Assembly (NCBI GenBank): GCA_947586625.1
Contig: CANPXS010000003.1
Coordinates: 1-58,591, forward strand
Direction: 5' to 3'
Source: an uncultured Clostridia bacterium
GTDB lineage: Bacteria; Bacillota; Clostridia; Oscillospirales; CAG-272
Length of the DNA stretch: 58,591 bases
The notes beneath the pieces were generated by a model, which saw only the letters and a program-made list of their open reading frames with translations, ran no database searches and was not told where the DNA came from. A program made the position numbers and the translations under genes. Positions 1,264 to 46,625 of this stretch are shown piece after piece (within the stretch, counting starts at the first letter, position 1; the number at the start of each line of letters is the position of its first letter).

Positions 1264-1296
1264 GTGGGGGAAGCTTTTCTTAAAAGTTTTCCCCAC
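1264..1296 (+). repeat. REP-like hairpin (family copy D), may double as terminator
   Basis: gtgggggaagctttt-ctt-aaaagttttccccac; 15 bp stem with two G-T wobbles, 3 nt after the stop codon. Confidence 0.7.
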
Positions 1297-1340
1297 AAAA
1301 ATTATTTAATTCAAATCCGCCGCGTAAAACCGATTCGCCG

Positions 1341-1368
1341 TTGACTTTTTTTCCATATATGATATAAT
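1341..1368 (+). promoter_or_regulatory. sigmaA promoter for nusB operon
   Basis: TTGACT-16nt-TATAAT with extended -10 TG. Confidence 0.7.
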
Positions 1369-1382
1369 TAAACTGTATCAAT

Positions 1383-1844
1383 ATGCAAAATAAACGGGTG
1401 AAAACAATGACAAGACGTGAGGCGAGAGAGACGGCGATGACGCTTTTATATGAGCGCGCCTGCCGCGCGGATACGGACGCACGCGAGGTCTATGAAAGGT
1501 CGCTGTCGCTCCGTGACATCGAGGAAAACGATTATATTAAAGAAGTCTATTTCGGCGTGTGGGACTGCGTCGGCGAGCTTGACGAAAAGATCGCGGGCGC
1601 CGCTATCGGGTGGAGCCTCGAGAGAATGTCGAAGGTGACGCTTGCGATACTGCGGCTCGCCGCGTACGAGCTTTATCACATGCCGACGATACCCAAGAGC
1701 GTGACGCTCAACGAGGCTGTCGAGCTGTCAAAGCAGTACGACGACGCGCAGGCGTCGCCGTTCGTCAACGGCATACTCAGCCGCATCGCGGAGGATGAAA
1801 CGATAGAAAAGGTCGCGGTGCCGCGAAAGGGCGGAATGTCGTGA
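1383..1844 (+). CDS. nusB: Transcription antitermination factor NusB (start may be 1407)
   Basis: RREARE..M.LLY, W.LERM, ILRLAAYEL, NEAVELSK.Y, FVNGILS. Confidence 0.95.
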   Translation: MQNKRVKTMTRREARETAMTLLYERACRADTDAREVYERSLSLRDIEENDYIKEVYFGVWDCVGELDEKIAGAAIGWSLERMSKVTLAILRLAAYELYHMPTIPKSVTLNEAVELSKQYDDAQASPFVNGILSRIAEDETIEKVAVPRKGGMS

Positions 1845-2794
1845 CGCATACGGCGGCGCTCGGCATCGACACGAGCAATTACACGACGTCGTTGTCGCTC
1901 GTCGTAGACGGCGAGGTGGTATCGAACAGAAAATCGCCGCTGCCTGTCGCGGGCGGTCAGCGCGGACTGCGTCAAAGCGACGCCGTGTTCGCGCATACGA
2001 AAAATCTACCTGCTTTGACGGACTTGATCGGAGCCGATATCGCGGCGGCGGGAGTCAAGGTCGACGCGATAGGCGTTTCCCGCGCGCCGCGCGACGGCGG
2101 GGAGTCGTATATGCCGTGCTTTCTTGTCGGGATAGCGGCGGCGCATGCGGCGTCGTCGGTCACGGGCGCGCCGATATATGAGTTTTCGCATCAGGCGGGT
2201 CACATCACGGCGGCGCTTTACTCCGCCGGACGGCTCGATCTGCTCGACAGTTGCGAGCCGTTTGCGGCGTTCCATGTGTCGGGCGGTACGACGGACGTTA
2301 CTGTCGTGACGCCGCGCTGCGGCGGTTTCGACGTTGAGCGCGTCGGCGGCAGCGACGACCTGCACGCGGGACAACTCATCGACAGAGTCGGCGTTATGAT
2401 GGGCATGCGGTTCCCGTGCGGTCCCGAGCTTGAAAAGGCGGCGGCAGACGTGCCCGTGTCGCTGTCCATGAAAACGTCGGTGCGCGGCGTTTACTGTTCG
2501 ATGTCGGGCGCGGAGAATAAGGCGGCGAAGATATTCCGCGATACCGGCGACGTTTCCGCGGCAGCGTCGTATACGCTCGACTTTGTGACCGCGACGCTCG
2601 ACAAAATGACGCGCGCCCTGCGCAAGTCGTATGCTACGATACCGATAATATATTCGGGCGGGGTTATGAGCTGCCGCAGGATGCGCGAAACGCTCGGGGC
2701 GCGGGACGGCGTATGGTTCGCGGAGCCGGATTTTTCGTCCGACAACGCGGCGGGTACGGCGCTTCTAGCATACAGAAAACATATGGGGAAATGA
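1841..2794 (+). CDS. TsaD/Kae1-like glycoprotease (M22) family paralog
   Basis: LGIDTSNYTTS, FSHQAGH, HVSGGTT, AGQLIDRVGV..G..FP.GPELE, SGGVMS, SDNAAG. Confidence 0.85.
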   Translation: MTHTAALGIDTSNYTTSLSLVVDGEVVSNRKSPLPVAGGQRGLRQSDAVFAHTKNLPALTDLIGADIAAAGVKVDAIGVSRAPRDGGESYMPCFLVGIAAAHAASSVTGAPIYEFSHQAGHITAALYSAGRLDLLDSCEPFAAFHVSGGTTDVTVVTPRCGGFDVERVGGSDDLHAGQLIDRVGVMMGMRFPCGPELEKAAADVPVSLSMKTSVRGVYCSMSGAENKAAKIFRDTGDVSAAASYTLDFVTATLDKMTRALRKSYATIPIIYSGGVMSCRRMRETLGARDGVWFAEPDFSSDNAAGTALLAYRKHMGK

Positions 2795-2798
2795 GCCT

Positions 2799-4040
2799 AT
2801 GGAGGATTTTTCTGCGATACCGATGACCATGACGGTCACGGAGCTGAACGAATATATAAAGATGTCGCTTGACGCGAATCCTGTGCTCGGCGACATCTAC
2901 ATCAAGGGAGAAATATCAAATTTCACGAATCACTATAAGACGGGGCATCTTTATTTCACGTTCAAGGACGAGAGTGCGGCGATGAAGGCTGTCATGTTCC
3001 GTTCGAGCGCAGTGAAGCTGAAATTCAGACCCGAGAACGGAATGAAGGTCATAGTACACGGCCGCGTAGCGGTGTTCGTGCGCGACGGGCAGTACCAGCT
3101 TTACGCGGACGCGATGGAGCCGGACGGCGTCGGCGCGCTCTATATCGCGTTCGAGCAGCTCAAGGCGAAGCTCGAAGCGGAAGGCCTGTTCGCGCCCGAG
3201 CGCAAGCGTCCGCTGCCGAAGATACCGACGCGCGTCGGCATCATCACGTCGCCGACGGGCGCGGCGGTCCGCGACATGATAAACATATCGGGACGACGCT
3301 TCCCGCTTGCGAAGCTGATACTGTATCCCGCGCTCGTGCAGGGACCTGACGCGCCGCCGCAGCTCATCGCGGGGCTTGATTATTTCAGCCGCACGAAGTC
3401 GGCGGACGTCGTTATAATCGGACGCGGCGGCGGCTCGATTGAGGATTTGTGGGCGTTCAACGACGAGGGAGTTGCGAGAGCCGTTGCGAGGTGCGAGGTG
3501 CCTGTTATTTCGGCGGTCGGACACGAGACCGATTTCACTATCTGCGACTTTGTCGCCGACAGGCGCGCGCCGACGCCGTCCGCGGCGGCGGAAATTGCGC
3601 TGCCGGAGGTCGGCGAGCTCAGACGCAAGCTGCAAAATATCATCACGCACAATTCGCTGTCGCTTTCCAAACTGGCAGAGGTGAAGCGCAGACGCCTCGA
3701 GGCGCTGTCGTCGAGGCGGTGTCTGTCGGCGCCGCACGTTCTTATCGACGACAAGCGCATGGCGGCGGTCGCATTGACCGATAAGCTGTCGGCGGCTATG
3801 GGGGCGAAGATAGGCGCGGGTAAGCTCGCTCTCGCGGGAGCGTCGTCGAAGCTCGACGCGCTCGCTCCGCTGTCGGTCCTGTCGCGCGGATACTTCGCCG
3901 TATACGGCGAGGACGGCGGTATCGTCAAAAGCGTACGCGATGTTAAGACGGGGCAGCGCGTGAAGCTGCGTGCGTCGGACGGTGAGATAGAGGCGTCGGT
4001 TACAAAAATAAACGAATATCACGGTGACGGAGAAAAATAA
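2799..4040 (+). CDS. xseA: Exodeoxyribonuclease VII large subunit
   Basis: GEISNF..H..GHLYFT.KD, ITSPTGAAVRD, GRGGGSIEDLWAFNDE, SAVGHETDFTI, RAPTPSAAAE. Confidence 0.97.
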   Translation: MEDFSAIPMTMTVTELNEYIKMSLDANPVLGDIYIKGEISNFTNHYKTGHLYFTFKDESAAMKAVMFRSSAVKLKFRPENGMKVIVHGRVAVFVRDGQYQLYADAMEPDGVGALYIAFEQLKAKLEAEGLFAPERKRPLPKIPTRVGIITSPTGAAVRDMINISGRRFPLAKLILYPALVQGPDAPPQLIAGLDYFSRTKSADVVIIGRGGGSIEDLWAFNDEGVARAVARCEVPVISAVGHETDFTICDFVADRRAPTPSAAAEIALPEVGELRRKLQNIITHNSLSLSKLAEVKRRRLEALSSRRCLSAPHVLIDDKRMAAVALTDKLSAAMGAKIGAGKLALAGASSKLDALAPLSVLSRGYFAVYGEDGGIVKSVRDVKTGQRVKLRASDGEIEASVTKINEYHGDGEK

Positions 4041-4041
4041 A

Positions 4042-4290
4042 ATGGAAGAAAACGTAAAAGCAAACGCTGAAATGACGTTCGAGGCGGCGATAGCGCGTCT
4101 TGAAGAGATAGTGAGAGCGCTCGAAAACGGCAGTACGCCTCTCGACGAAGCGCTTTGCCTGTTTGAGGAGGGCGTGAAGCTTGTAAGGCTCTGCAACGAG
4201 CGACTCGACGGCGCGGAGCAGAAGATTAGAATGCTGACGTTCACGCCGGACGGAGATGCCGTCGAATCTGATCTTGTCGAACGGGGATAA
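4042..4290 (+). CDS. xseB: Exodeoxyribonuclease VII small subunit
   Basis: TFEAAIARLEEIV..LE.G..PLDEAL..FEEGVKL; follows xseA. Confidence 0.95.
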   Translation: MEENVKANAEMTFEAAIARLEEIVRALENGSTPLDEALCLFEEGVKLVRLCNERLDGAEQKIRMLTFTPDGDAVESDLVERG

Positions 4291-4296
4291 CGCGAA

Positions 4297-5151
4297 ATGG
4301 CATTTTCTATCGGCAATATCGAGGACGTACTCGCTAAAAATGCAGAGCTGATAAACGGTGCGCTCGACAGTCTTTTGCCGCAGGGCGACGCGGGACATTC
4401 TATAATTTACGATGCGATGAGATACTCGGCGATGGACGGCGGCAAACGCATACGTCCATATCTGACGCTCGAATTCTGCCGCCTCGCGGGAGGCGACGTT
4501 ACGGCGGCTTTGCCGTACGCGTGCGCGGTCGAGTGCGTGCATACGTATTCGCTCATACACGACGATTTGCCGTGCATGGACGACGATGATATGAGGCGCG
4601 GCAAGCCGACATCGCATAAAAAGTTCGGCGAGGCGAACGCGCTTCTTGCGGGCGACGCGCTTTTGACGTATGCGTTCGGGCTTATCGCGGAAAATCCGTT
4701 CGCGGACGCGGAACGAAACGCGCGCGCCGTGTCGGTGCTTGCGTCCGCAGCCGGTCACGACGGCATGATAGGCGGGCAGGTGCTCGACATGATGTATGCG
4801 GAGAGGGAAGCGACGCTTGAAGAAATAGTCGAGATGGAGCGCAAAAAGACGGGCGAGCTTATCGCGGCCGCGGTGGCGCTCGGACTTGTCGCGGCGAACG
4901 CGCCCGAGGATATGTTCGCGTCGGCGCGGACGTATGCGTTCAACATAGGGTTGTCGTTCCAGCTCATCGACGATATACTCGACGCGGACGCGGGAGACGG
5001 CGAGGCGACGGTGATGTCGGTGTTGACGGTCGACGAGGCGAGGGGACTTGCGGCGGAGCTTACGGCGGCGGCGATCGACGCGGTCGTGCGGTACGAGCGC
5101 GCGGGCGATCTTGTCGCGCTCGCGAAGTGGCTGCTCCACAGAAATGCATAA
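4297..5151 (+). CDS. ispA: Farnesyl diphosphate synthase / polyprenyl synthetase
   Basis: GGKRIRP, HTYSLIHDDLPCMDDDD.RRGKP, KTGELI, FQLIDDILD. Confidence 0.93.
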   Translation: MAFSIGNIEDVLAKNAELINGALDSLLPQGDAGHSIIYDAMRYSAMDGGKRIRPYLTLEFCRLAGGDVTAALPYACAVECVHTYSLIHDDLPCMDDDDMRRGKPTSHKKFGEANALLAGDALLTYAFGLIAENPFADAERNARAVSVLASAAGHDGMIGGQVLDMMYAEREATLEEIVEMERKKTGELIAAAVALGLVAANAPEDMFASARTYAFNIGLSFQLIDDILDADAGDGEATVMSVLTVDEARGLAAELTAAAIDAVVRYERAGDLVALAKWLLHRNA

Positions 5152-5213
5152 CGAATGAATATATTCATCTTGATTTTGCGCCGCACCGGTGATATACTGA
5201 CGGTATATAGTGT

Positions 5214-6038
5214 ATGAGAGCGGACGTTTACCTTTTTGAATACGGCTATGCCGAGAGCCGTGCACGGGCGAAATTTTTGATCGGCGAGGGCGCGGTCGAA
5301 ATCGACGGCAGACGAATCACAAAACCGTCGTTCGACGTCGACGAAACTGTGACGCACGACGTCAAGATCGATGTGGAGGCGTGTCCTTACGTGAGCGTCG
5401 GCGGCATGAAGCTGAAAGCGGCTGTCGACAGATTCAATATCGACGTGTCGGGAAAGCGCTGCCTTGATATCGGCTCGTCGACGGGCGGATTTACGGACTG
5501 CCTTTTGCAGCACGGTGCCGCGCATGTGTTCGCTGTCGATTCGGGCGATTCGCAGCTTCACGAAAAGCTGCGCGCCGACGAAAGAGTCACGGTCATGGAG
5601 AATACGAACGCGCGCGGACTTTTGCGCGCTGACGTGGGCGTTTTCGACATTGTGACGTGCGACGTATCGTTCATATCGCAAAGGCTCATCGTGCCTGCCG
5701 TAGCCGACGTGCTGTCGCCTGTCGGCGAGTTCGTGACGCTTATTAAGCCGCAGTTCGAGCTCGACAGACGCCGCGTCGGAAAGGGCGTCGTGACGGAACC
5801 CTCGGACAGGGCAGAGGCGATATTCTCCGTTGCTTGTGAGTGCGCGCGTCACGGACTGTTTATGCGCGCTCTGACGGTGTCGCCCGTCGAGGGCGGCGGC
5901 GTGCGCGACAGAAAAGCGCACGGAAACAGGGAGTATATGGCGCTTTTTGACAGAGTCGAACGTGCGGCATTGACTGTCGCGGATGCGCGAGCGTTCGTGC
6001 GCGGCGAGGACGAATGTGACGTGAGATTTTTCGCGTAA
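5214..6038 (+). CDS. tlyA: TlyA family rRNA 2'-O-methyltransferase
   Basis: S4 domain, YVS.GG.KL, LDIGSSTGGFTDCLLQ.GA, DVSFIS, LIKPQFE, GNREY. Confidence 0.93.
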   Translation: MRADVYLFEYGYAESRARAKFLIGEGAVEIDGRRITKPSFDVDETVTHDVKIDVEACPYVSVGGMKLKAAVDRFNIDVSGKRCLDIGSSTGGFTDCLLQHGAAHVFAVDSGDSQLHEKLRADERVTVMENTNARGLLRADVGVFDIVTCDVSFISQRLIVPAVADVLSPVGEFVTLIKPQFELDRRRVGKGVVTEPSDRAEAIFSVACECARHGLFMRALTVSPVEGGGVRDRKAHGNREYMALFDRVERAALTVADARAFVRGEDECDVRFFA

Positions 6039-6053
6039 ACGGAGAGAGACGGT

Positions 6054-6377
6054 ATGAAACGACTTGCGGAAATGTGGCGCGACGTCGAGGCGCACGGCGG
6101 CGACGTTTTTATGATATCGCCGCCGAGGACGGGACTTTTGCGGACTGCGGCGGTGCTGTTCCTTTCTGAGATGATTATTGTCGGTGCGACAATGAACGTG
6201 CTGCTCGCGATAGTGACTGTCCCGGCGATGATGGCGTGGGCGTATTTCTATATCATTTTCTGCAAGGTTTGGGTCTATTATAAATATTCAAAATTTTATC
6301 TTGTAGCGTCGCCCGCCGTGTCGGCTCTCTCGGCGGTGGCGATACAGCAGACGATACTCGGCATTTGGGGGAGGTGA
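6054..6377 (+). CDS. Small hypothetical membrane protein (about 3 TM)
   Basis: RBS ggagag, hydrophobic segments, fills the gap between tlyA and the next gene. Confidence 0.65.
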   Translation: MKRLAEMWRDVEAHGGDVFMISPPRTGLLRTAAVLFLSEMIIVGATMNVLLAIVTVPAMMAWAYFYIIFCKVWVYYKYSKFYLVASPAVSALSAVAIQQTILGIWGR

Positions 6378-6385
6378 ACGGTCGT

Positions 6386-7993
6386 ATGGACACGGTCTCG
6401 ATATTATGGCACAACGGCGCGCCGTCATGCATGATGCGCGACTTCGACTTTGTCGGCGAGCTTGCGCTTTCCGACCTTATCCCGCTTTCAAAGACGCGCA
6501 CATACGGCGAGGGTGAGCTTCGTCTCGAACCGTTTTTCACGACCGATACTGTGACGCTCTCATGCCGATGCGAGATGTTCTGCGAGCTGCTTGACGACGG
6601 CGGGCTTTATGACGGTCTTTCGTCGTGCTTTTCGGCGCTGTCCGATATATGCAGGCTGCGGCAGGAGAAGGAAGCGCCGCACACGAACGAGTCGATGATG
6701 TACAGCATAAAAGAGCTCGAAATGTACGTCGACTATGTCGACGGTATGGCGAAGTTATTTTCGGAGCATCCGGCGAAAAGCGAATTTTTGCGCAGACTCG
6801 AAGCGGAGATAAAGCGCATCGCGGAGTCGGAGGAATATCCGCGCCTGCGCGCGGAGGTGCAGCGACAGTCGCACGCGGTAAAAAACGCGAAGAGCATCAC
6901 TATCGGGCTGAACCTCGACGCGCAGCTTCGTCCGCTCGAAGCGGGGGTCGTCAAGGTCAACGAGGTGCAGTATCGGTCGGGTGAGTTTATAGATAAGCTG
7001 CTGCGGCTCGATTTTAAGGACGACGAGTTCACATGCTCGGTGCAGCTCTCACCGACCGACAAGAAACTGTCGCAGGAGGAAGCCGCCGCCATGCGGTATG
7101 CGGTCAACGGCGCGCTCGGCAAGATATTCTCGTCCGCGCTCGTCTCGTGGGAGCGGACGGTCAGAAAATACGTTATAAGCGGTCTTGACGCGCTGTTCCC
7201 GCTGCTGCCCGAGTGGCAGTTCATATCGGCGTGTATGGAAATGCTTCGCGTCCTTCGCGGGTATAAACGTCCGCTGTGCAAGCCGCAGTTCGGCGATCTT
7301 GACGAAATAACGGGGCTTTATAATCCGGCGCTCGCTATGTCGGGGCGCGTGCCCGTCGCCAGCGACATCGGATTCGGCGACGAGATAATATATATTCTGA
7401 CGGGACCGAATCAGGGCGGCAAGTCGGTTTTCACGAAATCGGTCGGACTCGCCTATTCGATGCTGCATCTCGGACTGCCACTGCCGGCGGTGTCAGCCGT
7501 GGTGCGTCCGGTCGACGCGATATACGTACACTTCGTCGACAGCAAGTCGGACCGCGCGTATAAAAACGGACGGCTCGCGGGCGAGTGCGAGGAGATAGGA
7601 ATCATAAACGGGAAGATAACGAAGGACAGTTTGTTTCTGTTCGACGAGGCGTTTTCGAGCACGAGCGCGGACGAGGCTGTCGTGCTCGCATCCGAGATAC
7701 TGTCCGCGTATGCGGAGATAGGCGTGCGCGGCGTATGCACGACGCATCTGCACGGGCTTTGCAGCATGGCGGACGGAGACGGCGCGTCGTCGCGCATATG
7801 CAATCTGACGGCGGTGCTTGCGGGCGAATCGCACGACAGGACGTACCGCATAGAGAAGGGCGGGCGCTACGGTCACAGCTACGCTATGGACATAGCGAAA
7901 AAATTCCGTCTGACGCGGGAGGAGATACTCGCAATGCAGAATGACAGAAAAATGCAGGACGGCGGAACATGGGAGGCGGCGTATGAGCATTAA
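6386..7993 (+). CDS. MutS-related ATPase (MutS domain V, lacking mismatch-recognition domain)
   Basis: GGAGGT RBS; GLYNP, ILTGPNQGGKS, GRLAGEC, LFLFDEAFSSTS, TTHLH, SYAMDIA. Confidence 0.85.
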   Translation: MDTVSILWHNGAPSCMMRDFDFVGELALSDLIPLSKTRTYGEGELRLEPFFTTDTVTLSCRCEMFCELLDDGGLYDGLSSCFSALSDICRLRQEKEAPHTNESMMYSIKELEMYVDYVDGMAKLFSEHPAKSEFLRRLEAEIKRIAESEEYPRLRAEVQRQSHAVKNAKSITIGLNLDAQLRPLEAGVVKVNEVQYRSGEFIDKLLRLDFKDDEFTCSVQLSPTDKKLSQEEAAAMRYAVNGALGKIFSSALVSWERTVRKYVISGLDALFPLLPEWQFISACMEMLRVLRGYKRPLCKPQFGDLDEITGLYNPALAMSGRVPVASDIGFGDEIIYILTGPNQGGKSVFTKSVGLAYSMLHLGLPLPAVSAVVRPVDAIYVHFVDSKSDRAYKNGRLAGECEEIGIINGKITKDSLFLFDEAFSSTSADEAVVLASEILSAYAEIGVRGVCTTHLHGLCSMADGDGASSRICNLTAVLAGESHDRTYRIEKGGRYGHSYAMDIAKKFRLTREEILAMQNDRKMQDGGTWEAAYEH

Positions 7994-8849
7994 AACGGTC
8001 GCGGTTTTGCCGTTCGGCATAGACGATAAAAATGACGCGCGTCTCGGCGCGCTGCTCGGCATGTGCCGCGGCGCGGGAGTCGACGTCGTGATGCTCGACA
8101 GTCTCACGCTGCCGGAAAAATGCAGCGGTATATGCGTTGCGGACGATGTGCCGGACGGCGTCGAGCTGATAATCACGCTCGGCGGCGACGGGTCGGTTCT
8201 GTACGCAGCCGAGAAGGCGCTGCCGCTCGGCGTGCCGGTGCTCGGAATAAACACGGGCAGGGTCGGATATCTTGCCGAAATATCGGGCGACGATATGGGG
8301 TCGCTCAGCGATATACTGCGCGGCGGATATGAGGTCGACGAGCGCATGATGCTGACGGCGGAGATACGATGCGGCGGCAGTGTGACGACGCTTCGCCCCG
8401 CGCTCAACGACTACGTTGTGACTAAATCATCTGCGGCGAAGATAGCGGGCATATCGCTGTCGTGCCGCTCGGGCGGCGACGTCTACGACGCCGGAAAATT
8501 CGACGCGGACGGCGTTATTTTTGCAACGCCGACGGGCTCGACGGCGTATTCGATGTCGGCGGGCGGTCCGCTCGTCGACCCGTCGATAGACTGCATATGC
8601 GTCACGCCGATATGTCCGCATTCGGTCATGTCGCGTCCGTCGATATATTCGACGAGATTTGTTATTGAGTGCGAGGCGGGAGAGTGGAGGCGTTCGGCGC
8701 TCGAGCTGTCGCGCGACGGCATGGAGACGGTGGAGCTTGCGGCGGGCGCAGTCGTGACGGTGCGCAAGAGCGAGTTTCGGACGAAGCTCGTCAGAGTGCG
8801 CACGGGCGGGTTCACGGGCGTGTTCCGCAGCAAAATGACGGGAAGATAA
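7983..8849 (+). CDS. nadK: NAD(+) kinase
   Basis: LGGDGS, GINTGRVGYL, ALND, ADGVIFATPTGSTAYSMSAGGP, TPICPH. Confidence 0.95.
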   Translation: MSIKTVAVLPFGIDDKNDARLGALLGMCRGAGVDVVMLDSLTLPEKCSGICVADDVPDGVELIITLGGDGSVLYAAEKALPLGVPVLGINTGRVGYLAEISGDDMGSLSDILRGGYEVDERMMLTAEIRCGGSVTTLRPALNDYVVTKSSAAKIAGISLSCRSGGDVYDAGKFDADGVIFATPTGSTAYSMSAGGPLVDPSIDCICVTPICPHSVMSRPSIYSTRFVIECEAGEWRRSALELSRDGMETVELAAGAVVTVRKSEFRTKLVRVRTGGFTGVFRSKMTGR

Positions 8850-25827: not shown

Positions 25828-26913
25828 ATGGCTGATTTTCAGATGTCGGACGGAATGAATTACGCGCCCGAGGGAAAGCCGTCGCCCGTCGTGGGACCCG
25901 GCGAATTTGAATTTGCCGCGATAGGACTCGATCACGGCCACATCTACGGCATGTGCAACGGACTGATCGAGGCCGGCGCGACGCTCAAGTATGTGTATGA
26001 CCCCGATCCGGTCAAGGTCGCCGACTTCTGCCGCCGCTATCCCGGCGTTAAGGCAGCGGCAAGCGAAGAGGAAATATTCTCCGACGACAAGGTAAAGCTC
26101 GTCGCGGGCGCCGCAGTCACGTCGGAAAGATGTGCGCTCGGACTGCGCGTCATAGACGCAGGGAAAGACTACTTCACCGACAAAGCGCCGTTCACGACTC
26201 TCGCGCAGCTTGCAGTCGCGAAAATGAAGGTCGCGCGGACGGGTCGCAAGTACATGGTATACTACGGCGAGCGTCTTCACAACGAGTCCGCGATATACGC
26301 GGGGCAGCTCATCAAAAAAGGCGCGATCGGACGCGTCGTACAGGTACTCGGACTCGGTCCGCACAGACTGAACGCGCCGTCGCGTCCCGACTGGTTCTTC
26401 AAAAAAGAGAAGTACGGCGGCATACTCTGCGACATCGGCAGCCATCAGGCGGAGCAGTTCCTCGCGTATTCGGGCGAGACGGAGGCGCACGTCGTTCATT
26501 CGCAGATCGGCAATTTCGCGCATCCGGAATATCCCGAGCTTGACGATTTCGGCGACGCCGTGATCGTCGGCGGCAGCGGTGCGACGCAGTATTTCCGCGT
26601 CGACTGGTTCACGCCGGACGGGCTTCGCACATGGGGTGACGGCAGGACGATGATACTCGGCACGGACGGTTACATCGAGCTGCGCAAGTACATAAACGTC
26701 GGCACCGACGACGGGAGCGATCAGGTGTTCCTTGTCGACAAAAAGGGCGAGCACCGCTTCTGCGCACGCGGACAGGTCGGCTTCCCGTTCTTCAGCGATC
26801 TTATCAAAGACTGCATAGACAGGACAGAAAACGCGATGACGCAGGCGCATGCGTTCCTCGCGGCGGAGCTCGCGCTCACCGCGCAGGCGAACGCCGAGGT
26901 CATAGGGAAGTGA
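25828..26913 (+). CDS. Gfo/Idh/MocA oxidoreductase
   Basis: GLDHGHIYGM, FTDKAP, GGILCDIGSHQ, VDWFTPDGL.TWGDGR. Confidence 0.92.
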   Translation: MADFQMSDGMNYAPEGKPSPVVGPGEFEFAAIGLDHGHIYGMCNGLIEAGATLKYVYDPDPVKVADFCRRYPGVKAAASEEEIFSDDKVKLVAGAAVTSERCALGLRVIDAGKDYFTDKAPFTTLAQLAVAKMKVARTGRKYMVYYGERLHNESAIYAGQLIKKGAIGRVVQVLGLGPHRLNAPSRPDWFFKKEKYGGILCDIGSHQAEQFLAYSGETEAHVVHSQIGNFAHPEYPELDDFGDAVIVGGSGATQYFRVDWFTPDGLRTWGDGRTMILGTDGYIELRKYINVGTDDGSDQVFLVDKKGEHRFCARGQVGFPFFSDLIKDCIDRTENAMTQAHAFLAAELALTAQANAEVIGK

Positions 26914-26927: not shown

Positions 26928-26980
26928 TGTGGGGGAAACTTTTGAGAAAGTTTCCCCCACACCCCTTTCAAAATTTTTTA
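26928..26980 (-). repeat. REP-like hairpin with conserved foot (family copy C)
   Basis: Perfect 15 bp stem tgtgggggaaacttt/aaagtttcccccaca; minus strand reads AAAAATTTTGAAAGGGG then hairpin. Confidence 0.8.
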
Positions 26981-27040
26981 TAAGAGTTTTGTTTGGTATA
27001 ATCGTATATATGTACGGTGATTTTTTATATGTACGTTCGC

Positions 27041-39477: not shown

Positions 39478-39505
39478 GGGAGAGAAGCCGCGACGCTTCT
39501 CTCCC
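39478..39505. terminator. Bidirectional terminator-like hairpin
   Basis: gggagagaagc...gcttctctccc flanked by A-rich and T-rich tracts, between convergent genes. Confidence 0.8.
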
Positions 39506-39518
39506 ATATTTTATTGAA

Positions 39519-40193
39519 CTATCCCTTATACGACATCGTAATGTCGCCGACGTTGACGCTTATCGTTATGCGGTGCGGTGCGTTTTCGTCGCCGCCGCCG
39601 ATATTAGCCGCGTCGTCGTTGTCGGAGGTGACGTTTACGAAATAATTCTCGCGCGATTCCGGAAATGAGGCGATAACGTCGCCGACGTTCACGTTCATCA
39701 TTATATCGTCGGTACTGACCGCGACGAGAAACAGCGAACCCGTGTCGATGTCGACTGCCATCGACGGGGCCGTGACGCCCTCGATGCTGACGTCGCCGTA
39801 ATCGACGTCGACGTCGTAGTCGACCCCGACATTTTCGGGTATGCCAACTCTTACGCCGTACCGTCCGCTGTCGCCGCGCGAAAGCGAGTCGATAACGGAC
39901 GTCGTCGATTCGGTCACGGTCAATATACCGCCGTTTGCGACAGCGGCATATACGCCGCTTTTCGGTTCCGCAAAGCTGACGACTATGCTGTTGCCGGAGA
40001 GGGTATATACGTCGACGTAGCCTGCCGACAGGTCGATATTGACGGTCTTCACGTAGTCTGTGGAGAATGTCAGCTCGGAGCTTATTATCTCATCGTCCGG
40101 CACGTCGACGAGCTTGTTTATGAGCACGAGCGCGCCGATTATCACAATAGCGGCGATTATGACGAACAGCGCCGCCAGAATGACGCGTTTCAT
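39519..40193 (-). CDS. DUF4097 (adhesin-like beta-strand repeat) membrane-anchored protein
   Basis: N-terminal TM, repeated V...GDV/I motifs. Confidence 0.7.
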   Translation of the reverse strand: MKRVILAALFVIIAAIVIIGALVLINKLVDVPDDEIISSELTFSTDYVKTVNIDLSAGYVDVYTLSGNSIVVSFAEPKSGVYAAVANGGILTVTESTTSVIDSLSRGDSGRYGVRVGIPENVGVDYDVDVDYGDVSIEGVTAPSMAVDIDTGSLFLVAVSTDDIMMNVNVGDVIASFPESRENYFVNVTSDNDDAANIGGGDENAPHRITISVNVGDITMSYKG

Positions 40194-40196
40194 TTG

Positions 40197-40883
40197 TCAG
40201 AGCCTTTCGTGTTCGGCGGTTTCGGGCATCATGCCGCAGACGATGTCGAGGTTACCGTTGCGGCAGCGTATCTCGTCGAGCATCTCCTTTTCGTCGTCCT
40301 CGTTTGACATTATGATGTTGTATGTAAGCTGGTACATACTGCCCATATTCGTTGTGCGGATGCGGACAAGGCGCGCGGACTTCGTATATTTGTCAAATAT
40401 GTCGTCGAAGATGTGGGGGTAGTTGAGTCCCTCGGGAATCGTTATCTTCAGCTCCTGCTCGCCGTGTCTGCCGCCGCCGAGACCCGATATCGAGATGAGC
40501 GCGTAAACGAGCAGTGCGACGACGGTGAATATGACAGCGAGCCATACGAATCCGACGCCCATCGTGATGCCCGCCGTCATGGCAATAAACAGCACGAGTA
40601 TGTCGGATGCGGTGCCGGGATTAGAACGGTAACGAATCAGCGAGAATGCTCCTGCGACGCCGAGTCCGACGCCGATGTTGCCGTTGACGATCATTATCAC
40701 GACCTGGACTATAAACGGTATCAGCGTCAGTGAAACGGATACGCTCTTCGACTTTTTGCCGACGAACGCAGAGACCGTGGCGATGGCAAGCCCGATTAAG
40801 AGCGATACGAGCGAGCATATGAGAAACCTGCCGACGGTGACCTCGCCGAGCTCGACCATTGATGTGAAAGTCTTGTCAAACAT
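40197..40883 (-). CDS. DUF4956 membrane protein
   Basis: VIMIVNGNIG.GLGVAGAFSLIRYRS.PG, LKITIPE.LNY, IRCRNGNL. Confidence 0.9.
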   Translation of the reverse strand: MFDKTFTSMVELGEVTVGRFLICSLVSLLIGLAIATVSAFVGKKSKSVSVSLTLIPFIVQVVIMIVNGNIGVGLGVAGAFSLIRYRSNPGTASDILVLFIAMTAGITMGVGFVWLAVIFTVVALLVYALISISGLGGGRHGEQELKITIPEGLNYPHIFDDIFDKYTKSARLVRIRTTNMGSMYQLTYNIIMSNEDDEKEMLDEIRCRNGNLDIVCGMMPETAEHERL

Positions 40884-41628
40884 TTTGTTTTTCCTCCGAT
40901 TCTTTTTCTTCGGTTTCTTCCGTTTCTCCGACCTTTCGGGTCACGTCGATGTAGGCGGTGCCGTATTTGCTGAACGACGTCGGGAATATTGACAGCTCGC
41001 TGAACTTGCGCGCGAGCCAAATCGGCATAGCGTCGGGTATCTTGACCTCCATCAGCCGCATACCGTCGGGGAGCAGAGGCGTCCCATATGCGCCTTTTGT
41101 AAGGTCGAAATCGTAGTCGCGGAACAGTAGATTTTTGTCGAAGGTGATGCGCAGGTTCGGGTCGTCCTTGCCGAAGTAAGCGGTGCGGTCATAGGAGAGC
41201 ACCATCGCGGGTGCTATGCGGTCGTAGAACGACAAGAGCCACGAGATCTCCTTCGCTATCTGCGAGTCCTTGCGGGATTCGGGCACGACGCCCGTCGTCG
41301 TGAACTCCATCGCCTCTTTATACGGCATGCTTATGCGGCGCTTGTAGACGATGCCGCGGTACTTTTTCTTTATCTCGACGAACGCGATCGACGTGTCCGT
41401 CGGCGTGCCGTAGCAGCGCAGGCGCAGCTTTTCCTTGTAAACGGGCTTGTCGTTCGAGGCGCGCACAAGAGCGAACGACGGCGTGTCGTAGTAGATGTTG
41501 AATATCGTGCTCTCGCCGTAAGAGTCGCCGCACATGTACTCGTCTACTGACGGCGCAAGCCCTTTGTACTGTTCTTCGGTTATTATGTATTTTTTTTCGA
41601 CTCGCTTAAAAACTTCCTTAAAAGCCAT
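40876..41628 (-). CDS. VTC-domain polyphosphate polymerase-like (CYTH-fold) protein
   Basis: R.EKKY, NIYYDT, YKEKLRLR.Y, EIKKK..GIVYKRR, LRITFD, EVK, FSKYG. Confidence 0.9.
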   Translation of the reverse strand: MAFKEVFKRVEKKYIITEEQYKGLAPSVDEYMCGDSYGESTIFNIYYDTPSFALVRASNDKPVYKEKLRLRCYGTPTDTSIAFVEIKKKYRGIVYKRRISMPYKEAMEFTTTGVVPESRKDSQIAKEISWLLSFYDRIAPAMVLSYDRTAYFGKDDPNLRITFDKNLLFRDYDFDLTKGAYGTPLLPDGMRLMEVKIPDAMPIWLARKFSELSIFPTSFSKYGTAYIDVTRKVGETEETEEKESEEKQNV

Positions 41629-41669
41629 AAAACCTCCGCTGCATCTTCCGCGTGACACTGTTTAATATT

Positions 41670-41698
41670 ATTATATTGTAAAATCAATGTAAAGTCAA
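41670..41698 (-). promoter_or_regulatory. sigmaA promoter with Pho-box-like direct repeat
   Basis: TTGACT-17-TATAAT containing TTTACA-N5-TTTACA (11 bp period). Confidence 0.65.
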
Positions 41699-41738
41699 GA
41701 GGTGTGAGGTAAGACAGCGCGATTTATGTTGAAAAGAG

Positions 41739-42653
41739 TCACATAAACGATTCGTCGTTCCATTCGATATACGGCGAGCCGTCGTCGCGGAAACGTATTT
41801 TCAGAATCACATAGCCGGACTTTGAATAGTCGAACGGATGCGACATAGGATAACCGCCCCATCGGTCGCCGAAATAGTAGTATTCGCCGTCGACGGGAAG
41901 CACGAACGCGGGCTGACTGTGATATGTCGTCGAGTCGCCGAACGGCGAGAGCATGCTCCATCTTCCGTCGATCTTGTCGGCGACTGCATAGCAGCCCTGA
42001 TTCGGACGCCAGCCCGTGCAGAACGAGGACAGCATATAGTACCGTCCGTCGCGGTAAAACACCGCTGGAGCTTCGCGGAATTCGCCCTGCCATAACACAT
42101 TCACAAGTCCGTCGACGTTCATATAGTCGTCGGTCAGACGGTATACATGCATGTCGGCGTTATCGCGCGACGATGAGATGAAGTATGCGGCGCCGTCGTT
42201 GTCGCGAAAGAGCGTGCAGTCGCGGCTCATGTAACCGTACGGATTAAAGTGACCGTGGTAGACGAAATCGCCGTCGGGTGTGTCGCACGTCGCGACGCAA
42301 CATGCCGCGTCGTGATAGTCGCGTCCGTTTTCATAGTGCGCCCACATCACGAATTTGCCTGTTTTTTCGCAGTAGAGGACCTTCGGACGTTCGATGTTGA
42401 CCTTGTGACCGTCGTCGCGGCAGAGCCTTTGCTCGGTGCGCACGCGGTACGGGCGTTTGACGCTGTCTGTCGTCAGAATGTGGCTGCGGAATTCCCAGTT
42501 TTTCAGATCGGCGGAACGGTAGCACGAGACATAGTAGTTTTCGCGCCTGTCCTCGCCGTACCAGTACCAGTATTCGCCGTATCGAATTATGTAACCGCCG
42601 TGCGCGTGGAGCGGCGCGCCGTTTATGTCGGTAAAAACACTTCCGTTTTTCAT
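41739..42653 (-). CDS. Glycoside hydrolase family 43 (GH43_24-like)
   Basis: HAHGG, YWYGE, IERPKV, SRDCTLF.D.DG.AY, REAPAV, HSQ. Confidence 0.88.
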   Translation of the reverse strand: MKNGSVFTDINGAPLHAHGGYIIRYGEYWYWYGEDRRENYYVSCYRSADLKNWEFRSHILTTDSVKRPYRVRTEQRLCRDDGHKVNIERPKVLYCEKTGKFVMWAHYENGRDYHDAACCVATCDTPDGDFVYHGHFNPYGYMSRDCTLFRDNDGAAYFISSSRDNADMHVYRLTDDYMNVDGLVNVLWQGEFREAPAVFYRDGRYYMLSSFCTGWRPNQGCYAVADKIDGRWSMLSPFGDSTTYHSQPAFVLPVDGEYYYFGDRWGGYPMSHPFDYSKSGYVILKIRFRDDGSPYIEWNDESFM

Positions 42654-42677
42654 AGTGAATCCTTTCGGGGAATGTAA

Positions 42678-42910
42678 TAAAAGATTTTGAAGATAAGGGG
42701 CTAATGGGAGGGGACTTTTTTTGTTTTGGAGCCCCTTTTGGTAAAAGGTGCCCCAAACCCTCTCCAAAAGCGGACCGATTAGTGATTATTTTAAGCTATC
42801 TCCGAGGATATTGTTTCCGTTTACCTGATAAAATCAAAATCGGTAATAAAAGTTTTTGAAGAAAGGGGTACGGGGAAAGGAACTTTTTTCAAAAAGTTCC
42901 TTTCCCTGTG
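42678..42910 (+). repeat. Composite (BIME-like) REP mosaic, copy A
   Basis: Truncated forward unit, inverted unit (gccccttttggtaaaaggtgcccc..ctctccaaaagcggacc) and complete forward unit with 16 bp stem; homologous to 46390-46625. Confidence 0.8.
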
Positions 42911-42916
42911 AAAAAC

Positions 42917-45900
42917 TTATTTATTAAATCTAATATAATACAAGTCAAAGTCGCATCCGGGGAGGAATACTGCGTTGACGTCGGCGGTGCCTACGGCGCC
43001 TGATACGGAGACTGTGACCTCGTACGGCTTATCGGACGCGGCGAAGTCGACGGCGGTCACCTCGTCGCCTATGCGTATCTCGACGGTGTCGCGCTCGTGG
43101 TGCGTTTTGCCGCATACGGTGACAGTCGACGCGCCGTCGCCGAACTCGAGCGCGGCGAAACCGACGGTGACGTTGTTGCCGATGTGCGCTATGCGGTCGC
43201 CCTCGCGCCTGTACGTGTCGCCGTAGAGAACGTCGCAGTCGGGGGCGCGCAGTATCTCATACGCGCGCGCAGGCGCGGCGAAGCGGAACCCGCCGAATAT
43301 CATCGGCTGTATGAAGTCGAAGCGAATACGGCGTAGTCCGCAGAGACGGTGCGGCAGCTTATACGACCGCGTGCTGTACGTGTACCACGGGTGATCGGCG
43401 ACAAAGTAGAACTCGCCGAGCTTTTCCTCGCCTTCGGTCACGTCGTATATCGAGAACGGCAGCGTCGAGTTGTGATAACGCATCATCGTCACGGCGACGT
43501 CGTCGGAGCCGAGAGGCCCGAAGTCAACGTTCTCGAACAGTACGGACGACGTCGACGCAAGCGAACGCACGCCGCCCTCCTTCTCGGGTAGCATAGAGTC
43601 GGAACCCGTCGCGACGATGCCGGGCACGAAGCGGTACGGGTCGCAATAGTGGGCGCCTACGCCTTCGGCAGTGAAATGTATCTCCGAATAAACGGCGGGG
43701 TAGGGTGTGCCGATGTTGCTGTACGCGCGCAGCGCAAACTCGCCGTCGGCGGTCGCGGTCACAGTCGCACCCGCGCCGTTTTCGTCAACGTCGACGGTGA
43801 CAAAATCGGCGGCGACTCCGCGCGTTATAGCGGTCCATTCGATGCTGCCGCAGTTGGCGTTTGTCGGGTACGACTTCATCGAAACGTGCACAGACGGCGC
43901 GTCCTTCGTCAACGTGCGCGTCGAGGTCGACAGCTCTATCTTGCGAAGCGGTATCTCGCCGCTTTCGGGCGACTGCTCGCATCTGTCGATGACGGTGATG
44001 CCGTCGGGGACAGAGCAGGGAAGAGACGGCACTGTGACCGACACTGTAGGCAGCGACGGCGACGAAACGGTGACGGTGACGTCGCCCGGCTCGTCTGTCG
44101 CGGCGACTATTGCCATGAGTCTGCCGGAGAACAGCCGGCGCGAGCTCGATTTGTACTGCTCGTAGTCGGTGCTGTCGCCGTTGTCGAGCCCGACGAGACG
44201 ACCTGCGCCCGTGACGGCGACGTTCATGCGGTTGCGCGCGTTGGCGACGAATGTGCCGTTTTCGTCGACGGTCGATATCGCAACAAATAAGAGATCGCGT
44301 CCGTCGGCGTTTATGCTTCCGCGCTCCGGCTCAAGTACGATCGATGTGGGATCGGAGAACGAGCGCACCTCGTCGCGCGCGACGATATTGCCGTCTTTGT
44401 CGTATGCGACGGCGGTGAGCGCGCCTGGTGCGTACGGTATCTGCCAGAATTCCGATATCTTCATGCCCGATTCATGGTCGTGGTCGAACGTGCCGACGAG
44501 CGAGCTGTTGAAATAGAGTTCGGAGCGCGACGCGTTCGAGTGAACGGTCACGTCGATCATTTCGCCCTCGTTGTAGTCCCAGCATTCGGGCGATATGCGC
44601 ACGAACGGTGTAACAGCACCGTCCGTCCACTCCGCGCGGTACGCGTAGTATGAATCCTTCGAGAATCCAGCCGTGTCGATCTGACCGAAGTAGGAGTTCT
44701 TCGTCTCATACGGCGTCGGCTCGCCGATGTAGTCAAATCCCGTCCATATGTACTGACCGGCGCAGTAGCGCGCGCGCCTGTCCTCGGTTATGTTGTACTC
44801 CGTCGATTTCGACGCCCATGACGTCGTGCAGTTGAACATAGACGAGCACTGATGGTCGTCGTGCGTTAAAAACTTGGACGAATACGGATAGTGATATATG
44901 CCGCGGCTCTGCACCGTCGACGCCGTCTCACTGCCGTAGATGCAGTATGTCGGGTATTTTTCGTGATGCGCGTCGTAGAGCGATTCGGCGTAATTGTAGC
45001 CAACGACGTCGAGCAGAAGTCCGCACTTCTGCGCGTTTTCATTGCGCATGTGGTTAGAGCCGGATGTCGTGAACGCGTTTTTGTACGGGTCGTGGACGCG
45101 GACGAGACGGCAAAGCTCCTCCGTCACCTCAATGCCGCGCGGCGACGTTGTGTCGCCTATCTCGTTGCCTATCGACCACATTATGATGCACGGGTGGTTG
45201 CGGTCGCGGCGTATCCACGAGGCGACGTCGCGCTCGTGCCACTCGCGGAAATATACGCCGTAGTCGTGCTGCGTCTTGGGGTATTCCCACATGTCGAACG
45301 ATTCGTCAATGATGAGGAATCCGAGCTCGTCGCAGAGTTCGAGCAGCTCGACGGCGGGCGGATTGTGCGACGTGCGAATCGAATTCACCCCCATCGAGGC
45401 GAGCTTTTCGAGCTTGCGCCGCAGCGCGGCTTTGTTGACGGCTGTGCCGAGAGCGCCGCAGTCGTGGTGCTCGCATACGCCGTGCAGCTTGACGTGCCTG
45501 CCGTTGAGATAAAATCCCGAATCGGCGCGGAACTCGATCTTGCGGAAACCGAAGCTGTTCTCCGCCGCGTCGATGATGCTGCCGCCGACGGTGAGTACCG
45601 TCGAGAGCGTATACATATATGTGTCGCCGATGTCCCACAGATGCGGCGACTCGACGTCCATGCCGCATTCGCAGATGTTTCCGTCTACGCTTGACTCGAC
45701 CGATGCGATCGCGTTTCCGTCGCGGTCGACGATCTTGTGCGTCAGCGTGCCGTGCTCGCACCCGCAGAGCTCCGTGCGCACGGTGACGCGCCAGCTGCCG
45801 CCGTCAAGACGCGCGTACGATATGTATACGCCGTCAGAGGCGATGCGCGTCACAGGCGCGGTTTTAAGCCATACGCAGCGGTATATGCCCGCGCCCGAGT

Positions 45901-46285
45901 ACCAGCGCGTGTTCGGGTCGCGGTATACGCAGCGAACTGTTATCACGTTCTCACCCTCATGCAGGTGATCGGTGACGTCGACCTCGAACGTCGTGTAGCC
46001 GTATTTCCACTCAAACACAGCCTCGCCGTTGACGAACACGGTCGAGTCCATGTAAACGCCCTCGAAGCGAAGTATCGTGCGGTCTTCCGTCGGCGCATAC
46101 GTGTAGACGCGCCTGTACCAGCCTTCGCCCGTGCGGTATAGAGCGTGTGTGTCGTAGATCATGTAGTCGTGAGGGATCTCGACAGGACGGAACACGTCCG
46201 ACGACATCACGTCGCCGTAGGAGGCGCCGAGCGACGTTTCGCAGAATTCCCATCCGTCACAGAAAAGTTTTGCTGTCGTTATCAT
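42917..46285 (-). CDS. GH2 beta-galactosidase-like with DUF4982/Ig and CBM-like C-terminal domains
   Basis: RFEGVY, RWYSGAGIYR, GVCEHHD, RTSHNPP, RDRNHP.IIMWSIGNE, WTGFDYIGEPTPY, GLDNGD. Confidence 0.93.
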   Translation of the reverse strand: MITTAKLFCDGWEFCETSLGASYGDVMSSDVFRPVEIPHDYMIYDTHALYRTGEGWYRRVYTYAPTEDRTILRFEGVYMDSTVFVNGEAVFEWKYGYTTFEVDVTDHLHEGENVITVRCVYRDPNTRWYSGAGIYRCVWLKTAPVTRIASDGVYISYARLDGGSWRVTVRTELCGCEHGTLTHKIVDRDGNAIASVESSVDGNICECGMDVESPHLWDIGDTYMYTLSTVLTVGGSIIDAAENSFGFRKIEFRADSGFYLNGRHVKLHGVCEHHDCGALGTAVNKAALRRKLEKLASMGVNSIRTSHNPPAVELLELCDELGFLIIDESFDMWEYPKTQHDYGVYFREWHERDVASWIRRDRNHPCIIMWSIGNEIGDTTSPRGIEVTEELCRLVRVHDPYKNAFTTSGSNHMRNENAQKCGLLLDVVGYNYAESLYDAHHEKYPTYCIYGSETASTVQSRGIYHYPYSSKFLTHDDHQCSSMFNCTTSWASKSTEYNITEDRRARYCAGQYIWTGFDYIGEPTPYETKNSYFGQIDTAGFSKDSYYAYRAEWTDGAVTPFVRISPECWDYNEGEMIDVTVHSNASRSELYFNSSLVGTFDHDHESGMKISEFWQIPYAPGALTAVAYDKDGNIVARDEVRSFSDPTSIVLEPERGSINADGRDLLFVAISTVDENGTFVANARNRMNVAVTGAGRLVGLDNGDSTDYEQYKSSSRRLFSGRLMAIVAATDEPGDVTVTVSSPSLPTVSVTVPSLPCSVPDGITVIDRCEQSPESGEIPLRKIELSTSTRTLTKDAPSVHVSMKSYPTNANCGSIEWTAITRGVAADFVTVDVDENGAGATVTATADGEFALRAYSNIGTPYPAVYSEIHFTAEGVGAHYCDPYRFVPGIVATGSDSMLPEKEGGVRSLASTSSVLFENVDFGPLGSDDVAVTMMRYHNSTLPFSIYDVTEGEEKLGEFYFVADHPWYTYSTRSYKLPHRLCGLRRIRFDFIQPMIFGGFRFAAPARAYEILRAPDCDVLYGDTYRREGDRIAHIGNNVTVGFAALEFGDGASTVTVCGKTHHERDTVEIRIGDEVTAVDFAASDKPYEVTVSVSGAVGTADVNAVFLPGCDFDLYYIRFNK

Positions 46286-46301
46286 GATTATTCTCCGTTT
46301 A

Positions 46302-46348
46302 TATAAACGTTTCCGACTAATCTTACCATGCGCGCGAAAAAATGTCAA
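46302..46348 (-). promoter_or_regulatory. GH2 promoter with LacI/CcpA-like operator
   Basis: TTGACA-17-TAAGAT (extended TG); GGAAACGTTTAT dyad just downstream. Confidence 0.6.
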
Positions 46349-46389
46349 TTACAGTCTGTCGGATAAAATAATACAGTTTATCGGTTTTG

Positions 46390-46625
46390 TAAAAGTTCTT
46401 GAAAAGAGGGTGGGTGCAGGGAGGGAGAGAAACTTATTTATTTAGGGGGCCCCTTTTTGTAAAAGGTGCCCTCCACCTCTCCAAAAGCGGACCAAATCTG
46501 TTTATCTTAAGTTCGCACCGAGAATTTTTGTTATTGTTAATTATAGAAAAATTGTAAAAGTTTTTGAAAGAAAGGGAGTGTGAGGGAAGGAAAACTTTTT
46601 TTCAAAAAGTTTTCCTTCCCTCACA
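46390..46625 (+). repeat. Composite (BIME-like) REP mosaic, copy B
   Basis: Same three-part architecture as copy A; perfect 22 bp stem 46579-46600/46604-46625. Confidence 0.8.

Follow-up and report, generated by a model that had tools for sequence, protein, structure and literature searches.

An intergenic repeat family of uncultured gut Clostridia whose 5' foot mirrors a hairpin arm, a proposed intrastrand triplex motif

We analysed a 58,591-nucleotide stretch of DNA (contig CANPXS010000003.1 of assembly GCA_947586625.1, hereafter the window) from an uncultured Clostridia/Eubacteriales metagenome-assembled genome (MAG), together with the whole source assembly (G000; 2.39 Mb in 164 contigs, 55% GC, 93% complete), whose lineage is also represented by DNA in rabbit gut metagenome runs. 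The window carries several copies of a dispersed intergenic repeat consisting of a conserved 5' foot followed by a hairpin, and the foot repeats the purine 5' arm of that hairpin in reverse order without complementing it. We consider it probable, on the strength of covariation among copies, that these units belong to a fast-turnover, lineage-specific intergenic DNA repeat of the intrastrand triplex kind, as the code and the polarity of the foot, as far as sequence can tell, are those of an alternate-strand intramolecular triple helix.

The 13-base foot, with at most two mismatches allowed, occurs nine times in the window compared to 0.57 expected occurrences, and none out of 100 shuffles got to nine. 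Genome-wide, G000 contains 147 foot matches at up to one mismatch, and 136 feet when up to two mismatches are allowed and a G-rich purine tract has to stand behind the foot, 96 of which are simple units made of one foot and one hairpin. A unit spans 60-75 bases and is built of the foot, a purine run, a G-run, a 3-4-base centre, a G-rich arm ending in AAAC plus five T's, a 2-4-base loop, five A's plus GTTT and a C-rich arm; on the opposite, C-rich strand the foot reads as a pyrimidine tail behind the hairpin. The original prediction had deduced this architecture from a few copies in the window, and it holds for the entire genome, as does the statement that stems vary in sequence and length while remaining self-complementary: across 40 aligned units 99.4% of 629 cells are paired, and 14 out of 16 pairs changed on both sides, which was matched by none of 500 shuffles. 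A covariance model built from these 40 units retrieved 109 matches in G000 at E<=1e-6 (including some opposite strands of one hairpin), which is more than a handful. At least 73 distinct arms were found, each with a matching foot. Furthermore, a GTAAT or GTAGT word is located just 5' of the whole foot in most copies, approximately 25-30 bases from the hairpin, and a U-rich word is conserved 3' of the part of the tail that could form a triplex. Units also cluster, with 27 tandem pairs (165-375-base spacing), five feet-facing pairs and one hairpin-facing pair among the 136 feet; a miniature inverted-repeat element with units as its inverted ends was rejected on these counts. Rfam gave no match at gathering score across the whole window, and we found no description of this repeat family in open-access papers and preprints.

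The mirror relation is visible in two parts of the foot. When both segments are read 5' to 3', the five pyrimidines between its two G's vary in step with five purines of the 3' arm, and in G000 TTCTT goes with AAGAA in 28 out of 28 cases, TCTTT with AGAAA in 4/4, TTTCT with AAAGA in 2/2, CTTTT with GAAAA in 1/1 and TTTTT with AAAAA in 57/60. Five relatives showed the same, with 21 out of 23 asymmetric feet in parallel register and none in antiparallel register, the two misses both being truncated units lacking their own 3' arm. These include CCTTT with GGAAA, from a species in which nearly all listed feet are CTTTT. Antiparallel Watson-Crick pairing of the foot with the apex was rejected, as it fits none of 30 asymmetric feet. 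The second part is the purine tract between T-run and hairpin, which resembles its own arm at a median rank of 1 of 96 and is unbeaten in 39/96 (permutation p<2e-4), and a direct-repeat relation between foot and arm was discarded in view of a diagonal of -1.57 vs 6.58 for the mirror. Among the foot/arm oppositions we counted 482 G/G, 354 A/A, 94 A/G, 23 T/A, 7 T/C and a single G/A, and at positions eight or more from the strand-switch junction described below the two are identical in 343 of 359 cases. At all seven aligned C interruptions of the purine tract of the arm, the foot has a T, which for a C-G pair is the tolerated choice in the purine motif of triple helices. Moreover, foot base 5 is linked to the hairpin loop, since A occurs with AT in 10 out of 14 cases, while G goes with TC and occurs with AT in only 4 of 87 (Fisher 4e-8). 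Two-dimensional folds leave the foot mostly unpaired; one minimum-free-energy fold pairs its T-run with an A-run 3' of the hairpin, a candidate we rejected because the 3' flanks do not track the foot variants. Regarding the conserved 5' foot of the original prediction, the 13-base sequence does recur, but it is no fixed recognition word, as most of the foot co-varies with the stem as a mirror repeat.

According to the available parts of PMC2532714 and PMC4666352, the third strand of a triple helix lies antiparallel to the purine strand in the purine motif (G.G-C, A.A-T, T.A-T) and parallel to it in the pyrimidine motif (T.A-T, C+.G-C), and alternate-strand recognition, known from designed oligonucleotides, is covered by the former source, in whose available part the T.CG triple is listed for the pyrimidine motif only. 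Here, one continuous third strand complies with both polarity rules, because the foot runs antiparallel to the 5' arm where this arm is purine and parallel to the 3' arm where that one is purine. The units have three consecutive blocks on one strand, namely a purine block, its Watson-Crick pyrimidine partner and a mirror-related third. The definitions in the available part of PMC4666352 place the G-rich strand in class I (RH-R-Y) and the C-rich strand, where by symmetry a pyrimidine-motif stem and a purine-motif apex would be expected, in class III. In the fold we propose, the two arms would pair as a hairpin and the foot would lie as third strand in its major groove, with the purine tract antiparallel to the purine 5' arm (G.G-C, A.A-T, T.A-T, T.C-G) and the T5 run crossing over to the 3' arm, whose A5 run it would follow in parallel orientation (T.A-T, C+.G-C). 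Selection would keep this three-stranded fold, most likely by acting on transiently single-stranded or supercoiled DNA in which the G-rich strand folds. In this respect, the tolerance of T/A and T/C and the near absence of G/A are better accounted for by a purine motif in DNA, with the G-rich strand folding, than by any reading at the RNA level. A hint as to which strand selection acts on also comes from the wobbles in the core stems, where in foot-strand terms G:T exceeds A:C by 40 to 15 (p=0.001); the bias towards the foot strand noted in the original prediction is therefore real, although weaker than was implied there.

The units adopt a preferred posture at gene borders. The hairpin side adjoins such a border in 62 of the 96 units, with the hairpin between -14 and 29 bases from the stop of the gene reading into it in 47 and at most 33 bases ahead of a start codon in 15, and the distance from the foot side to the next gene has a median of about 190-205 bases. 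Of the flanking gene pairs, 30 are convergent, 49 co-directional and five divergent. The rule that the hairpin faces the gene leads to genes bracketed by two units, and we observed six such single genes, including trxB and glyA, with both hairpins facing the gene (G000 contigs C11, C13, C15, C37, C39 and C49). Their mRNA would carry a foot at its start and a tail at its end, the constant parts of which are complementary to each other; T-run subtypes did not agree consistently between the two bracketing units.

For the start-adjacent copies, inspection by eye found no Shine-Dalgarno-like word between hairpin and ATG in 10 out of 15. Most of the genes behind them, named from their N-termini, are presumably housekeeping genes, including dnaN, gyrA, uvrA, radA, trxB and mnmG. 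In all four repeat-free species compared, dnaN is preceded by an AGGAG-type box within about 10-12 bases of the ATG, whereas in G000 and the relative G010 the foot (ending GAGGAGG) and the hairpin are followed by 10 bases and the ATG, with no other box; the first six bases of this spacer are those of the relative G003. The same holds for uvrA, which has an AGGAG-type box within ~12 bases of the ATG in four out of four repeat-free species and instead foot, hairpin and ATG without any other box in G000 and G005, and for trxB, where foot, hairpin and ATG in G000 and G010 stand against an ordinary box in G011 and G002. The spacer between hairpin and ATG is 9-10 bases at all three genes of the repeat-bearing species. 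Given this order, and as no other box is present, the foot purine tract is the only candidate ribosome binding site, and we infer that it replaces the Shine-Dalgarno box before dnaN, uvrA and trxB, with the hairpin bringing it near the ATG. A precedent is found in T4 genes 25 and 38, where according to the available part of PMC3014915 a hairpin between Shine-Dalgarno box and AUG brings a distant box to working distance. The clostridial arrangement, a putative split site, is alike in having a foot box, a hairpin of 39-47 bases and then 4-13 bases to the ATG; it differs in being delivered by a repeat and recurring at at least ten genes. In another uncultured Clostridia MAG (locus L073), 30 bases before dnaN, we observed a 5-pair GC hairpin between a AGGAGGAG box and the ATG, which could be a unit remnant or an independent split ribosome binding site.

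The covariance model further revealed a patchy distribution. At E<=1e-6, the 19 genomes of the genus contain 113, 109, 87, 82, 51, 34, 32, 11, 9, 8, 8, 7 and 1 matches, and none in six genomes, four of which are at least 90% complete, while among 130 other genomes of the order (~90 genera) only four gave matches, 1-5 weak ones each. The foot-mirror design is kept in weak matches of other families and in a unit upstream of dnaN in a distant MAG. Comparison of orthologous sites confirmed that empty and filled forms exist between species. In G015, only a ~20-base spacer follows the 1143-codon gene at 42917..46348. At this junction G000, G005, G010 and G007 each have a unit, which differs between the four genomes in its stem and, in matching fashion, in its foot, and behind it lie varying numbers of nested modules. 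At the trxB junction, the variants of G000 and G010 differ despite 92-94% identity of the flanks, and G011 and G002 have a canonical terminator, an ordinary Shine-Dalgarno box and a GC hairpin without foot or apex. From these comparisons it follows that units are gained, lost and replaced as blocks much faster than their flanks diverge, and the view of a dispersed, non-autonomous and lineage-specific family, as originally predicted, is supported by the presence/absence differences. A foot derived from the target, i.e., a hairpin docking on a pre-existing purine tract, was rejected, as empty sites lack the constant part of the foot. At the trxB junction of G011 and G002 (loci L117/L119) and of G006 (L118), we also observed GC-rich hairpins with family-like arms, AAAA in place of the T5/A5 apex and no foot, and these foot-less hairpins may be deletion remnants of units. 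Viral contigs gave no match to one 21-base foot pattern, a narrow and hence weak search.

As to how such units persist, their spread or upkeep would need the fold, via a machinery acting on it, and the host would tolerate copies whose hairpin side points towards the gene, with at least three genes using the foot purine tract as Shine-Dalgarno box and the hairpin looping out the extra spacing. More speculatively, and with a likelihood that we consider rather low, the repeats could represent a natural experiment in which a long alternate-strand triple helix (up to ~20 triplets, with purine- and pyrimidine-motif segments in one third strand) is kept by selection, its fold being recognised by a non-HUH copying or integration machinery that places units hairpin-first at gene borders, where they would also serve essential genes, dnaN and uvrA among them, as split ribosome binding sites that can be carried from place to place.

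Several observations weigh against the triplex interpretation. The hairpin loop measures 2-4 bases and the centre between foot and arm 1-5 bases, and in 73 of the 96 units 2-4 of these centre bases are paired with the 3' end, leaving no free turn; full hairpin and full triplex therefore cannot coexist, unless the 2-4 closing pairs open or the triplex forms on duplex DNA, as in H-DNA, with the centre as its loop. A foot A faces an arm G, a non-canonical triplet, at 94 of 1024 aligned positions, of which 65 are within four positions of the strand-switch junction beside the constant GAA. Among the 47 copies that lie at gene 3' ends and have the tail strand as mRNA strand, G:T outnumbers A:C by only 14 to 9; the figures are 8 to 3 for copies in 5' leaders and 18 to 3 for all others. 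Variants have few independent origins (five T-run classes), and counts overstate events owing to shared descent of the copies. Genes were called crudely, as open reading frames (ORFs) with a minimum of 90 codons that passed a GC3 filter, and we identified neither a mobilising gene, the search for which covered Y1_Tnp, nor a target duplication or an exact end of the element. In addition, in vivo DMS footprinting of the E. coli counterpart gave no stable triplex, as stated in the available part of PMC4666352.

Two other explanations accept the mirror relation and place its cause elsewhere. The element might act at the RNA level, where the transcript of the upstream gene, the C-rich tail strand, would end in a hairpin clasped by the pyrimidine tail (U.A-U, C+.G-C) as a 3'-end stabiliser or unusual terminator, and the other strand would be a 5' leader with a ribosome binding site. 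This agrees with the 47 hairpins at the stops of inward-reading genes, which make the tail strand the mRNA strand, with the 15 just ahead of start codons, with the conserved U-rich word after the triplex-forming part of the tail, and with the statement in the available part of PMC4666352 that all-RNA triplexes form in the pyrimidine and not the purine motif. We nevertheless regard it as unlikely, since the wobbles of the 3'-end copies do not switch to the mRNA strand, a T-rich run (5-T-in-8 test) follows the stem in just 17/96 on the tail strand and 9/96 on the foot strand, textbook terminators exist elsewhere in the genome, and units stand between genes that are adjacent in G015 with no promoter room between them; moreover, T opposite A or C is more in keeping with a purine motif in DNA than A.A-U or A.C-G would be on the tail strand, and the five apex triplets would be purine-motif in RNA. 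The mirror could also be kept for a reason other than a triplex, for example by a protein reading both tracts, or by selection of both tracts as Shine-Dalgarno-like with whole units copied between sites. Block replacement at orthologous sites would indeed pass on an internal relation without fresh selection, the feet are Shine-Dalgarno-like, and the hairpin closes over the turn that a triplex needs. Such an explanation appears improbable to us, as no polymerase or two-fold-symmetric protein would be expected to make or read a reverse, non-complementary repeat, the T-to-C changes of the foot are unrelated to Shine-Dalgarno likeness and yet track the apex pair by pair, the tolerated exceptions (T/A, T/C, almost no G/A) obey triplet rules, and the many distinct arms each have their matching foot.

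The original prediction had instead favoured ends of the REP or IS200/IS605 type, with an HUH nuclease (RAYT or TnpA) recognising hairpin and 5' foot and mobilising them as single-stranded DNA. Dispersed intergenic hairpins beside stop codons, the GTAAT/GTAGT word 5' of most feet and the differences between species would be in line with it. The Pfam domain Y1_Tnp (PF01797) gave no match in five of the six repeat-rich genomes (G000, G010, G006, G007 and G002), while the same search was positive in 6 out of 14 control genomes; with no Y1 transposase in these five, membership in the REP/RAYT and IS200/IS605 groups fails. The sole match in the sixth genome (G005:C50:7397-7573, locus L071) is an 89-residue fragment of the C-terminal half of the domain, and its 2.7-kb locus has no foot motif. 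A preference for one replication strand was rejected, since unit orientation showed no bias with respect to local GC skew (47/90), and neither did it follow the local gene-strand majority (43/90). In addition, feet-facing pairs are rare, the GTAR word is ~25-30 bases from the hairpin rather than at its foot, and the foot co-varies with the stem, so that we see only a slight chance for this mechanism. Ordinary, independently evolved intrinsic terminators would likewise be stable hairpins a few bases past stop codons, and this reading is contradicted by what was observed and retains hardly any probability: a 13-20-base foot and the apex are conserved in more than 100 copies, 79/96 have no U-tract on the tail strand, four nearly complete genomes of the genus have no copy at all, and some copies directly precede start codons. 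Canonical terminators coexist in the genome, and in the window textbook examples with a GC stem and then a T-run lie at 56938..56907 (-) and 52494-52509 (+); the organism thus also uses ordinary terminators, and the units are not those of this lineage.

For the triplex interpretation, the closest published kind, as far as the available part of PMC4666352 (Holder et al. 2015) allows a comparison, is BoxC, also termed PIT or TMECO, along with the wider intrastrand triplex motifs. According to this source, it is multi-copy and intergenic, has three consecutive blocks on one strand (pyrimidine, purine, mirror purine), differs sharply in copy number between strains and close relatives, is associated with local rearrangements, folds as a triplex in vitro, gave a negative footprint in vivo, and lacks a known mobilising gene as well as a proven function. 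The length of TMECO is 37 bases, its blocks measure 9 bases each, its 3-6-base loops are free, its order is class II (Y-R-RH) and its distance to ORFs is not fixed, compared to the longer class I units described here. The latter fail its consensus pattern of a 9-base C-rich block, a loop, a 9-base G-rich block, a 3-base loop and another 9-base G-rich block, and as block order, size and sequence all differ, the clostridial family is not a member of TMECO. Since TMECO copies are nearly identical, they provide no covariation. In contrast, the family described here has hypervariable stems with three-way covariation next to a constant 13-base foot and a constant apex, its third strand would also cover the A/T apex by a strand switch, its hairpin closes over the turn, and its hairpin side sits at a gene border in most units. 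What is new is therefore the foot as mirror of the arm, with a putative strand-switching third strand, three-way covariation and a fixed posture at gene borders.

With REP, BIME and REPIN sequences the family shares short intergenic palindromes, often after stops, in strain-variable mosaic clusters with other modules. It differs in the missing Y1 transposase, in the rarity of inverted doublets (5 feet-facing vs 27 tandem) and in a flank that is a co-varying mirror strand rather than a fixed tetranucleotide; the GTAG-type word of REPs sits directly at the 5' foot of the palindrome, whereas here the GTAAT/GTAGT word is upstream of the whole foot. In IS200/IS605 elements, sub-terminal hairpins flank tnpA, in many cases along with tnpB, and insertion is tied to the lagging-strand template, whereas here there is neither tnpA (tnpB was not searched) nor a skew bias. 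Intrinsic terminators have a U-tract at once after the GC hairpin, a feature that most units lack. H-DNA is similar insofar as it needs a mirror repeat, which here is provided by foot and 5' arm on either side of a centre of 3-4 bases, and this context would lift the conflict at the closed hairpin base; H-DNA needs no inverted-repeat third segment, whereas in our units the 3' arm is always present and co-varying and the tracts, rather than being purely homopurine, switch to a T-run.

Ever since BoxC/PIT, it has been an open question if bacteria form DNA triple helices and if these are of any importance to them. Judging from the available part of PMC4666352, the E. coli motif is too uniform for evolutionary evidence and its in vivo footprint was negative. 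The clostridial family supplies what BoxC lacks, namely a candidate third strand to match each of dozens of different stems, and it includes strand-switch and interruption rules otherwise derived from designed oligonucleotides. This diversity renders the triplex hypothesis testable with simple oligonucleotides and reporters. Moreover, the repeat is seen rebuilding the translation start regions of essential genes and is a marker of rapid intergenic turnover in uncultured gut Clostridia.

Within the window, sequences were found at 1264, 26928, 42679/42848 and 46391/46556 as originally described, and the main hairpins indeed lie 3-16 bases past the stop codon of a gene that is read into them (Table 1). 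Two corrections are needed. The copy at 1264 is no full unit, as its arms and apex are family-like but no foot or tail is present on either side or strand, and the two clusters do not hold three units each; either cluster combines a truncated unit, reduced to foot and 5' arm, with an unrelated nested hairpin module and a single complete unit. In the truncated copy at 42679..42722, the foot mirrors the arm only weakly. For the unit at 26928, the plus strand reads as a pyrimidine tail and then the complement of the conserved foot.

Table 1 Repeat units and accompanying modules in the 58,591-nucleotide window.
Feature	Coordinates	Strand	Remarks
Bare hairpin, 15 pairs (2 G:T)	1264..1296	+	3 bases past stop of + ORF 370..1260; DNA fold -10.5 kcal/mol, z -3.9
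Hairpin of complete unit	26928..26961	-	begins ~15 bases past stop of + ORF 25828..26913; -17.4 kcal/mol, z -6.1
Foot of the 26928 unit	26962..26985	-	foot match 26967-26979, 2 mismatches
Shortened unit (foot, purine tract, centre, 5' arm, T-run)	42679..42722	+	without own 3' arm; foot match
Nested constant module: short GC hairpin ~42728-42754, then conserved spacer	42728..42847	+	separate repeat accompanying truncated units
Foot of complete unit	42848..42868	+	conserved 13 bases 42848-42860, then purine tract mirroring the 5' arm
Hairpin of complete unit, 2 G:T wobbles on +	42869..42910	+	ends 6 bases before stop of - ORF 42917..46348
Truncated unit (foot, tract, centre TGCA, 5' arm)	46391..46438	+	good mirror relation, one T opposite A
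Nested constant module and spacer, as at 42728	46445..46555	+	promoter-like match at 46568..46540 on - strand
Foot of complete unit	46556..46578	+	foot match
Hairpin of complete unit, 22 pairs	46579..46625	+	ends 8 bases before stop of - ORF 46634..47056; -24.6 kcal/mol, z -7.8

The nested module of ~120 bases always lies between a truncated and a complete unit, at both clusters of the window and on many other contigs of G000 (C7, C26, C63, C69, C75), and comprises a short GC hairpin, a conserved AAAAGCGGAC-type word and a spacer. Its depth in four metagenome runs was 40-782 compared to 2-19 in the flanks (~17 to 56 times flank depth), and the module may represent either a small transcript or a repeat in its own right. 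Over the repeats in general, these four DNA runs showed high depth and broken contigs, with one repeat-to-repeat joint in a single contig and no informative empty form of the repeat sites. A promoter-like match (TTCAAA, 17 bases, TATAAT; 10/12) is located on the minus strand at 46568..46540 and is directed into the nested module, its first hexamer being the complement of the conserved foot. Finally, a third repeated module with a core of the GTCGCT.ACGC..CCAAACCTCCGACACTTTCCGC type and hairpins of its own adjoins truncated units on G000 contigs C65 (~90-170 bases upstream of the dnaN start, locus L057), C1, C22, C36, C49, C55, C63, C69 and C75.

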